30,093 nt of DNA, from positions 1-30,093 of IMG/VR virus record IMGVR_UViG_2562617113_000015; one strand, 5' to 3'. This document shows, in pieces, positions 4,602 to 6,530 of this stretch. The stretch's first letter is position 1, and every line of letters begins with the position of its first letter. The notes below the pieces were generated by a model. The model did no database searches. It was not told the origin of the DNA and saw only the letters and a program-made list of their open reading frames with translations. The DNA is from a virus. Lineage: Duplodnaviria; Heunggongvirae; Uroviricota; Caudoviricetes. The position numbers were made by a program, and so were the translations under genes.

Positions 4602-4802
4602 TTATTGCGCTAATTCTTTTTTGACTGCAGCTTTCGAATATTCACATGCAAAAGACAGGATTTCATCACCTAATGTTTTTGCATTCTGATTATTTGACAT
4701 CTGTAAAACTTGCGCAGCGCACAACAGACTATGAATGTTTATTGCAAATGAATCCGATGCCAGACAAATACCTTCGAAATTGTCATGGATATTACTATTC
4801 AC
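4602..4802 (-). CDS. Small protein (66 aa) paralogous to the N-terminal domain of the adjacent HTH protein
   Basis: GTG start with AAGGAG RBS; segment DSFAINIHSLLCAAQVL...ILSFACEY aligns with DSFALNIANLLSAVRTF...VMEFIHEY of the upstream gene. Confidence 0.55.
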   Translation of the reverse strand: MNSNIHDNFEGICLASDSFAINIHSLLCAAQVLQMSNNQNAKTLGDEILSFACEYSKAAVKKELAQ

Positions 4803-4807
4803 TGCTG

Positions 4808-5260
4808 TTACTCCTTTGCAGCATTGCTACCAGTCAATAACCACATCGGATCGCAGCCAAGAATATTTGCCAGTGGGATAAGCATACTGATGGTTGGTTC
4901 ATACTCTCCGCTCTCCCACTGGATGATGATTTCTTCATCAAGAGCGAGCAGCCTGGCGAGTTCGGCTGTTGTTAAGCCGCAGGCTTCGCGTTGGGTGCGA
5001 AGGTTAACCAGCCAGCTTTCAGGGAAGGATTGTTTTTGTTGTGCAGGAGAAGCAGCAGATAGAGCATATTCATGGATAAATTCCATTACCTCAATGCCCA
5101 GTTCCTTTGAGCGAGCACAATCCAGAAGATGGAATGTGCGTACAGCACTTAGCAAATTTGCAATATTTAATGCAAAGGAATCAAGTTCTAAGCCCTTAAG
5201 CGTAACACAGCCGCAGTTGATAAAATTAGTTGTTTCTGGAGTTGCTTTTAGTGTCTTCAT
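4808..5260 (-). CDS. Two-domain protein (150 aa): unknown N-terminal domain plus C-terminal Cro/C1-type (XRE) HTH
   Basis: C-terminal GLTTAELARLLALDEEIIIQWESGEYEPTISMLIPLANILGCDPMWLL is a typical XRE HTH; first gene downstream of the PL-like promoter. Confidence 0.75.
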   Translation of the reverse strand: MKTLKATPETTNFINCGCVTLKGLELDSFALNIANLLSAVRTFHLLDCARSKELGIEVMEFIHEYALSAASPAQQKQSFPESWLVNLRTQREACGLTTAELARLLALDEEIIIQWESGEYEPTISMLIPLANILGCDPMWLLTGSNAAKE

Positions 5261-5290
5261 ATACCCACCAACAATTTTAAATTGAATTAA

Positions 5291-5342
5291 ATCAAGTTAT
5301 AATTGATGGTGCGATATTATGCTTTGGGAAATAGGCTGTCAA
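5291..5342 (-). promoter_or_regulatory. PL-like leftward promoter with OL operator
   Basis: Minus strand reads TTGACA-N17-TAATAT (-35 at 5337-5342, -10 at 5314-5319); perfect 17-bp palindrome ATCAAGTTATAATTGAT at 5291-5307 at the predicted start site; the ATCAAG half-site recurs in OR. Confidence 0.5.
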
Positions 5343-5370
5343 GAAAAAATTGATATCGTATATTTCAGGC

Positions 5371-5397
5371 AGAAAAAAAACGGGCAAAGCCCGTTAA
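5371..5397 (-). terminator. Rho-independent terminator downstream of the cI-like gene
   Basis: 7-bp stem (AACGGGC / GCCCGTT) with a 3-nt loop, followed on the minus strand by a U8 run; sits 10-30 nt after the cI stop. Confidence 0.65.
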
Positions 5398-5406
5398 AAT
5401 CAAAGA

Positions 5407-6096
5407 CTAACCAAATCTGTTTATGTTGAATGGTACTGATGAGATCACTTTAGACTGGATATAAAGCAGAGCTAACCCCTCTTTTTCGATGCTCCATGGT
5501 TGATAATTGGGGTTATCAGATAACACCATGATTTTGCTTCCAATTTTTTGAAGCCTTTTCACGTAGCATTCTCCATCAAAACAAAATGCATAAATACCAT
5601 CGCCATCAAAATAAGTTACTGTCTTATCAAGAAAAAGAAGGTCGCCAGGTGAGATTGTGGGAGCCATACTGTCTCCTCTGGCGTTACCTATTTCTATATT
5701 TTTGAATGCCCGATTTCCAACAAGACGTCGGGCATATTCAGGATCAAGTTCTATTGAGCGCACTACATCTATCAAGTCACCACGGACATGAGTTCCATCA
5801 CCGCAACTAAACTCAACATCAAGGACATTAAACACGACGCTATCTGTTCTTGTCTGGTGTTTCTCTTGCGAGGAAAAGGTTGGTGAGGAGTCTTCACCTA
5901 AGAACCAGGATTGTGGATAACCGCTAATCTCTGATAAATGCGCGAGCTTATCACTCCGTGGAAATGTTTTTCCTGTTGTCCAGTACTGCACTGATTGCGC
6001 ACTCACACCTAACTTGCGGGCCAGTTGAGCCTGAGTCCATCCTTTTGCTTTCAGCATCGCGGCTATTCGATTTTCCGTGTTTTTGACGTTCTTCAT
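5407..6096 (-). CDS. cI: CI-like prophage repressor (229 aa): N-terminal HTH plus C-terminal S24 (LexA-like) autopeptidase domain
   Basis: N-terminal HTH (GWTQAQLARKLGVSAQSVQYW); C-terminal G-D-S-M serine motif and a downstream lysine, as in LexA/CI; divergent from the cro-like gene. Confidence 0.9.
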   Translation of the reverse strand: MKNVKNTENRIAAMLKAKGWTQAQLARKLGVSAQSVQYWTTGKTFPRSDKLAHLSEISGYPQSWFLGEDSSPTFSSQEKHQTRTDSVVFNVLDVEFSCGDGTHVRGDLIDVVRSIELDPEYARRLVGNRAFKNIEIGNARGDSMAPTISPGDLLFLDKTVTYFDGDGIYAFCFDGECYVKRLQKIGSKIMVLSDNPNYQPWSIEKEGLALLYIQSKVISSVPFNINRFG

Positions 6097-6229
6097 GACC
6101 AGGTCCTGTGGGTTTCTTTACAAGGATAAATCTTTACTTGATTTTAGTGTATTCGATCCTTTTGCAACTTGCATGTTAATTTAATCTTGATGTATTCTTG
6201 TGTTATCAAGTTAATATTGGTGTTTTGCT
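6097..6229. promoter_or_regulatory. OR-like immunity region with divergent PRM/PR promoters and operator half-sites
   Basis: Intergenic region between divergent cI and cro; ATCAAG/CTTGAT half-sites at 6138-6143, 6186-6191 and 6205-6210; candidate PR is TTGATG-N18-TTAATA (6187-6216); exact -35/-10 assignments are uncertain. Confidence 0.55.
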
Positions 6230-6530
6230 ATGAAAGGAAATGATTACGACGTACTTCGCGCATTAATTGCGCAAAATGCCATTGCACGAAACCTTGGTGT
6301 AACTCCGCAAGCGGTGAATCAGTGGTTTTCCAAAAAACACAATTCCTGCTCGTTTTGTTTTACGCGTATGTGAAGTAGTTGCATGGAAGGTCACGCCACA
6401 TGGCTTAAGGCCAGATCTTTATCCTCACCCTGAAGATGGAATTCCTGATTCGTTACGCAAAATTTCAAATCCAAGCCTAGCGCGCACGGAAGATGGGCAG
6501 AGTGATTCATCAGAAATGTCCACGCGATGA
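6230..6530 (+). pseudogene. cro: Cro/YdaS-like regulator, frame-disrupted at an A6 run (6332-6337)
   Basis: The ATG frame gives an HTH (LGVTPQAVNQWFSK) and stops at 6371-6373 after ...HNSCSFCFTRM; the +1 frame continues TIPARFVLRVCEVVAWKVTPHGLRPDLYPHPEDG... to a stop at 6528-6530, matching the C-terminal pattern of YdaS-type Cro proteins. Confidence 0.55.

Follow-up and report, generated by a model that had tools for sequence, protein, structure and literature searches.

The window, by which we mean the whole stretch of 30,093 nucleotides analysed here, carries a lambdoid (lambda-like) prophage of Escherichia coli. Its immunity region (window positions 5240-6260) is 99.9% identical to a prophage adjoining mlrA in E. 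coli E21845/O/A, and the following genes and features lie in and around it:

4808 to 5260, minus strand: gene for a 150-aa protein, the first in the PL operon; HTH_3 domain at the C-terminus (PHROG 'CII-like regulator')
5379 to 5395, minus strand: intrinsic terminator after cI, a 7-bp stem and then a T-run
5407 to 6096, minus strand: cI, encoding a repressor of 229 aa with an N-terminal HTH_3 domain and a C-terminal S24 LexA-like peptidase domain; recognition helix SAQSVQYW
6230 to 6530, plus strand: cro, of the YdaS / P22-Cro type of helix-turn-helix (HTH); broken in the window, with a 47-aa product ending at 6373
Plus strand: ORF6N/ANT gene

The cI (minus strand) and cro (plus strand) genes are divergent and 133 bp apart, the short shared regulatory region that is expected of a lambdoid switch, while the gap between the gene of the 150-aa protein and cI is 146 bp. 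CI matches HTH_3 (4.9e-8) and Peptidase_S24 (4e-17), which is the lambdoid combination of an HTH with a self-cleaving repressor. Judging from the match coordinates for UmuD/LexA, Ser143 and Lys180 of CI align with Ser60 and Lys97 of UmuD, and Cys98-Gly99 aligns with the Ala-Gly of HK022, the usual cleavage position.

The reading frame of cro is shifted by an extra C at 6330/6331 (TTTTCCAAAAAA in the window vs. TTTTCAAAAAA in the E21845 and EC11 prophages; region 6325-6373). Cro is annotated as intact in all eight relatives compared (77-99 aa vs. 47 aa in the window), and the frameshift is due to sequencing error, or else this prophage is unable to complete the lytic switch. A 66-aa ORF (4602-4802, minus strand), located just downstream of the gene of the 150-aa protein, matches PHROG families 4587 and 5451, as do residues 23-72 of that protein, suggesting a duplicated N-terminal module.

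The left operon encodes the HTH 'CII-like' regulator, small proteins, a membrane protein, an SPFH lipoprotein, DUF5406 and DUF4222 proteins, and then Xis and Int. A preliminary description of this DNA had called it a cargo operon, which is an overstatement, as its genes belong to families that are common in the early-left operons of prophages, with xis and int at the end. No terminator was predicted on the leftward strand from 5260 to 1300, and the gaps between the left-operon genes hold no leftward promoter-like site. The single weak leftward match (9/12, 3450 to 3422) lies inside a small ORF, and such matches are fewer than in shuffled sequence (3 vs. 9.2).

The promoter at the head of this operon reads as follows:

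5314 to 5342, minus strand: PL, with -35 TTGACA (5342 to 5337), a 17-bp spacer and -10 TAATAT (5319 to 5314)

The PL-like promoter named in the preliminary description is real as a consensus match (10/12), and its hexamers are kept across all lineages as TTGAC(A/G/T) and a TAnnnT -10. The positions of the hexamers put the start of transcription at about 5307, the first base of a 17-mer that had been described as a perfect palindrome at the PL start. The position of this 17-mer (5291-5307) at the inferred start stands; its perfection does not. The reverse complement of ATCAAGTTATAATTGAT is ATCAATTATAACTTGAT, so that the arms ATCAA/TTGAT pair and positions 6/12 (G/A) and 8/10 (T/T) do not, leaving 6 of 8 pairs symmetric. 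A rightward promoter-like match (TTTAAA-16-TATAAT, 10/12, 5276-5303, plus strand) also lies inside this 17-mer, oriented towards the 3' end of cI. Its TATAAT is missing in distant relatives, and the match is probably incidental.

Three ATCAAG/CTTGAT half-sites had also been described in the cI/cro region, and these are indeed present (CTTGAT at 6137-6142 and 6186-6191; ATCAAG at 6205-6210). Each forms one arm of a 17-bp site, with a degenerate sequence (ATAAAT, GTTAAT, or ACCAAT) in the opposite arm. On its own, the hexamer shows no enrichment over the window (24 copies of ATCAAG/CTTGAT found vs. 19.1 +/- 4.7 expected). In the window, only the 17-mer at 6205, OR1, differs at no more than 3 positions from the one at the PL start, OL1, and a single match of 14/17 between the left and right regions is not rare, as at least 14 was reached in 19 of 200 shuffles. 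The evidence as originally stated would therefore not exceed chance.

The 17-bp dyad as a whole gives a different result. A symmetric matrix was seeded on the three sites beginning at 5291, 5338, and 6205 and run over the whole 30-kb window. Its next three best matches, at 6175-6191, 5270-5286, and 6126-6142, all fall in the two regulatory gaps, and no other 17-mer in the 30 kb reaches 13.5 bits. For the null model, both gaps, minus the seed sites, were shuffled 2000 times with dinucleotide counts preserved, and the cut-off was 13.5 bits: 1996 shuffles gave no match, 4 gave one, and none gave two or more, compared with the three observed. The 17-bp dyad family is far beyond chance. Its members, with the predicted promoter of the right side, are as follows:

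5270 to 5286: candidate OL3, AACAATTTTAAATTGAA; the weakest site (14.1 bits in the seeded matrix), in the 5' leader of the gene of the 150-aa protein
5291 to 5307: OL1, ATCAAGTTATAATTGAT; covers about +1 to +17 of PL
5338 to 5354: OL2, GTCAAGAAAAAATTGAT; covers the -35 of PL, 47 bp from OL1
6126 to 6142: OR3, ATAAATCTTTACTTGAT; 13.7 bits; overlaps the candidate -10 of PRM (TAAAAT, 6146 to 6141, leftward)
6169 to 6198, plus strand: predicted PR, with -35 TTGCAT (6169-6174), an 18-bp spacer containing OR2, and -10 TATTCT (6193-6198)
6175 to 6191: OR2, GTTAATTTAATCTTGAT; 15.0 bits; fills the spacer of the predicted PR
6205 to 6221: OR1, ATCAAGTTAATATTGGT; covers about +1 to +17 of the predicted PR, its end being 8 bp upstream of the ATG of cro

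OL2, which was first spotted in alignments with relatives, and candidate OL3 were both absent from the preliminary description. The centres of OL3 and OL1 are 21 bp apart, OR3 and OR2 are 49 bp apart, and a further site spacing is 30 bp. The right region thus holds three 17-bp sites of one consensus (at 6126, 6175, and 6205), and a second cluster beyond cI overlaps PL (OL1 on +1 to +17, OL2 over the -35), both as expected of a lambdoid immunity region.

Other registers and copies of the motif were considered. An AAATC-N7-GATTT register at 6128-6144 was rejected, as it does not recur at the other sites. ATCAAG is in excess on the plus strand inside cI and the HTH gene (six copies, at 4937, 5180, 5626, 5743, 5771, and 5818); at least six copies arose in 3 of 2000 codon permutations (p about 0.0015). 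As operator half-sites these copies were rejected in favour of a coding coincidence: five of the six encode Leu-Asp, and of the four in cI, three show synonymous variation among relatives. Only at 5743 is the copy kept in every relative; the dyad that it forms there, ATCAAGTTCTATTGAG, has a spacer of 4 bp.

This immunity type was found in phage PhiR49_2, in phage phi467, and in 142 of 5426 complete E. coli genomes, as well as in eleven records of Stx2a- or Stx2d-converting phages and the record of one related non-Stx phage. In nine aligned sequences, the variable positions number 10 of 72 in half-sites, 11 of 30 in spacers, and 104 of 177 in the rest of the intergenic DNA. The cI DNA of the most divergent of these nine lineages is only 80-83% identical, and the recognition helix of CI is invariant. 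In close relatives the half-sites of OL1 are invariant and OR2 varies at spacer positions only; 1 of the 12 half-site positions of OR3 varies, and its spacer is variable. The ATCAAG of OR1 is specific to the lineage of the window, most close relatives having ATAAAG there. In these relatives neither half of OR1 (ATAAAG / ACCAAT) matches the consensus, which counts against the operator reading. OR1 halves in most distant relatives are ATCAAG, GTCAAT, or ATCAAT, with GTAAAG in Citrobacter youngae.

We compared 92 loci, namely the window and 91 related ones, and counted matches of at least 11 bits. The sites lie at fixed offsets from cI, and only 5 such matches occur elsewhere in 512 kb. OL2 and OR2 are present in 92 of 92 loci, and OR3 lies 29-33 bp from the cI ATG in the 82 of 92 in which it is above the matrix threshold. 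OL3 keeps a fixed offset in E. coli lineages, and about 60 loci reach 11 bits at this site. In phi467 the OL1-OL2 and OR3-OR2 spacings are shifted by 1 bp.

Scans of genome and viral-contig collections yielded distant relatives with CI proteins 74-80% identical to that of the window, from Pseudocitrobacter, Citrobacter youngae, an Enterobacteriaceae genome, and metagenomic viral contigs. Around the sites the DNA of these relatives has diverged, and the sites themselves are sharper:

OL1: ATCAAGTTAAACTTGAT, a perfect palindrome
OL2: GTCAAGTTAAACTTGAT, 47 bp from OL1, as in the window
OR3: GTAAAGCTAACCTTGAT
OR2: GTTAATT(T/A)AAACTTGAT
OR1: ATCAAGTTATACTTTAT, GTCAATTTTAACTTGAT or ATCAATTATAGCTTGAT

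Taken together with the positions in the 92 loci, these sites give the consensus ATCAAG-N5-CTTGAT. The earlier proposal of ATCAAG as an operator half-site shared by the left and right regions is thereby borne out in a fuller form: it is the conserved half of a 17-bp dyad that occurs on both sides of cI at 92 loci.

The -35 hexamer of PL sits inside the left half-site of OL2, which always begins with G because this half-site, GTCAAG, is the reverse complement of CTTGAC, with the TTGAC of the hexamer. A consensus promoter scan of the right gap returned nothing, PR and PRM being below its threshold. TTGCAT is invariant there, and each lineage has a TAnnnT further downstream, at a distance of 16 or 18 bp (TATTCT, TAATCT, TAACCT, TACTCT, TATTAT, or TATCCT). 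From these positions the PR start would fall near 6205, on the first base of OR1, with OR2 in the PR spacer. We infer the placement of PR and PRM on this basis, including that of TAAAAT, which abuts OR3, as the -10 of PRM. A 32-bp block between OR3 and OR2 (6143-6174, TTTAGTGTATTCGATCCTTTTGCAACTTGCATG) belongs to no 17-bp site and varies among E. coli lineages only at 6159 and 6163-6166. Its hexamer GTATTC recurs at 6192-6197, and the block has diverged in distant relatives except for CTTGCATG; it probably holds promoter elements of PRM and PR.

Conservation at these places could in principle be that of promoter elements only (-35/-10 hexamers and UP-like A/T tracts), with the dyad symmetry incidental. 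OL2 does contain the -35 of PL, OR2 does lie inside the spacer of the predicted PR, and the regions are 68% A+T. We nevertheless hold this explanation to be highly improbable, as shuffles that preserve composition do not yield the sites, OL1 and OR1 are downstream of the -10 hexamers, where the promoter constraint is small, OL1 is a perfect 17-bp palindrome in distant relatives, and one and the same consensus is found at five or six places.

If the dyads are protein-binding sites, the locus offers three HTH proteins, CI, Cro, and the 150-aa protein. The HTH of each is invariant among E. coli lineages, and these lineages therefore cannot discriminate the binder. Covariation of helix and operator was likewise not usable, since the helix of CI is invariant in all relatives but one, the C. 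youngae locus, whose sites essentially match those of the others. This is the only relative found with a changed recognition helix (CI residues 31-45 are SAQTVVYWTKGDT vs. SAQSVQYWTTGKT). Its OL1 is still ATCAAGTTAAACTTGAT, and the two helix substitutions apparently leave the half-site unchanged.

The distant relatives are more telling. They keep a homologue of Cro (about 60% identity, with the same helix) and lack the gene of the 150-aa protein; the first genes to the left of PL are unrelated and encode no HTH, and OL1 and OL2 are still present. The sites thus go with CI and Cro and not with the 150-aa protein. For the latter to own the sites, as the operators of an autoregulator or second repressor, we consider extremely unlikely. 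All E. coli lineages inherit its gene together with the immunity region, its HTH is invariant in them, and OL3 occurs only where the gene is present, being missing in the distant relatives without it; yet the Pseudocitrobacter and Citrobacter genomes and the metagenomic viral contigs that lack the gene keep OL1, OL2, OR2, and OR1 in both sequence and position. At most OL3 could be its site. OL3 adjoins the ribosome-binding site of the gene, and might belong to this HTH protein instead of CI.

Between the two remaining proteins the comparison is neutral: wherever the sites occur, both CI and Cro are present, so that an assignment to either one is beyond what sequence alone can give. The CI operator specificity that had been proposed as likely is in this form supported by comparative sequence, with the sites tracking the CI/Cro pair. 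A Cro that alone binds the dyads, through its YdaS-type HTH, with CI recognising another sequence, would fit its presence beside the sites in all relatives and the conservation of its helix (TPQAVNQWF). We think this very unlikely. No other repeated or dyad element common to OL and OR was found, lysogenic repression needs OL sites at PL, and the half-site TCAA(G/T) resembles the ACAA(G/T) of the 434 repressor, the closest solved relative of the DNA-binding domain of CI. Moreover, CI and Cro share operators in characterised lambdoid switches, and both are expected on the same sites here. CI most likely binds the dyads as a dimer.

Judging from all of this, we consider the motif to be part of the operator set of a lambda-type immunity switch, in which CI would bind 17-bp dyads of the form ATCAAG-N5-CTTGAT, with a probability of about 0.8. 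The sites, their statistics and conservation, and their presence together with CI/Cro are observed directly; which protein binds, the exact transcription starts, and cooperativity are matters that we infer. A dimer of CI, with its 434-like HTH and LexA-like self-cleaving domain, would occupy the dyads on both sides. On the left, OL2 would overlap the -35 of PL and OL1 cover the PL start, with a weaker OL3 in the leader of the operon's first gene. In the right region, OR2 would fill the PR spacer and OR1 cover the PR start, and OR3 would overlap the -10 of PRM, the promoter for maintenance of cI. Both PL and PR would be silenced by CI in the lysogen, and transcription of cI would stop at the terminator behind it, outside the left operon. 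RecA-stimulated cleavage of CI would then free PL, with expression of the HTH gene, the small genes, the SPFH lipoprotein gene, xis, and int, and Cro would probably act on the same OR sites.

The left operon is expected to be under CI repression from PL. With OL1 and OL2 on PL, a terminator after cI, LexA-type Ser/Lys positions and a Cys-Gly in CI, and no terminator and just the one weak promoter-like match on the leftward strand inside the operon, repression in the lysogen and expression after the loss of CI are what one would expect. The preliminary description had proposed just this behaviour, which remains the default expectation and with which the anatomy agrees. The terminator is present in the window and in the PhiR49_2 and EC11 lineages, and its hairpin is kept in distant relatives. 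It is missing in the Stx2-phage and phi467 lineages, where cI transcripts could enter the PL region.

A switch wired unlike that of lambda, as a three-regulator immunity module with a different cooperativity or looping, could be read from the site map. The main sites are 47-49 bp apart, the O1 site is on the start at both promoters, and a half-site doubles as the -35 of PL. The E. coli lineages, including the Stx2a phages, co-inherit the PL-proximal HTH regulator and the nearby OL3 with CI and Cro. We regard such a wiring as unlikely. As read from the sequence, this is an ordinary on/off switch with five or six sites around the repressor gene, whose operator sequence we have not found described before; a literature search for the site sequences returned no paper containing them. 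Our understanding of how lambda-type switches work is unchanged by this finding. What it provides is a likely operator consensus, ATCAAGTTAAACTTGAT, and a sequence-based site map of one immunity type, which should be useful for the prediction of homo-immunity, for the design of reporters, and for the study of induction in Stx2a and Stx2d phages.

Among known systems, the PaaR2 / YdaS switch of CP-933P is, like that of the window, the immunity region of a lambdoid prophage; its Cro analogue comes from the YdaS family, and its divergent region likewise holds several palindromes. The palindromes of CP-933P are four evenly spaced 18-bp elements with the half-site GTTTAGTAA, and its repressor is linked to a toxin-antitoxin pair (PMC8630535). 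Both motif and repressor are unrelated to those of the window, and the CP-933P specificity was rejected.

The closest characterised full-length CI that we found is that of HK022, with 37% identity over residues 22-229 and the same domain order. The OR region of HK022 has dyads of the TGAAC...GTTCA type, not ATCAAG, and its HTH helix is TPKAISKW, so the HK022 specificity was also rejected.

The closest solved DNA-binding domain is that of the 434 repressor (E about 0.002), with which CI has in common Gln and Ser at positions 2 and 3 of its recognition helix and the GKT motif that follows. The operators of 434 are 14 bp long (ACAA-N6-TTGT), with the half-site ACAA(G/T), which is similar to the TCAA(G/T) of the window. 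The two systems differ in the core (TCAA-N7-TTGA, 15 bp within a 17-bp site, vs. 14 bp) and in the helix (AQSVQY vs. QQSIEQ). The first base of the half-site, T here and A in 434, would correspond to the change of Gln28 to Ala. With 17-bp sites, a TCAA-N7-TTGA core, and the helix AQSVQY, the specificity is not that of imm434.

Lambda itself differs from the window in several respects. Its operators are of the TATCACCGC type, whereas the consensus here is ATCAAG-N5-CTTGAT. The spacings here are 21, 30, 47, and 49 bp, compared with 23-24 bp in lambda, and lambda-style cooperative pairwise binding therefore cannot be assumed. The O1 site here is on the transcription start, not on the -10. In addition, cI ends at its own terminator with no rexAB after it, and no N-like gene is evident. 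The general plan is that of lambda: an HTH and S24 self-cleaving repressor, divergent cI and cro genes, and odd-length dyads of 17 bp in two clusters that flank cI, one that would control PL and the other the predicted PR and PRM.
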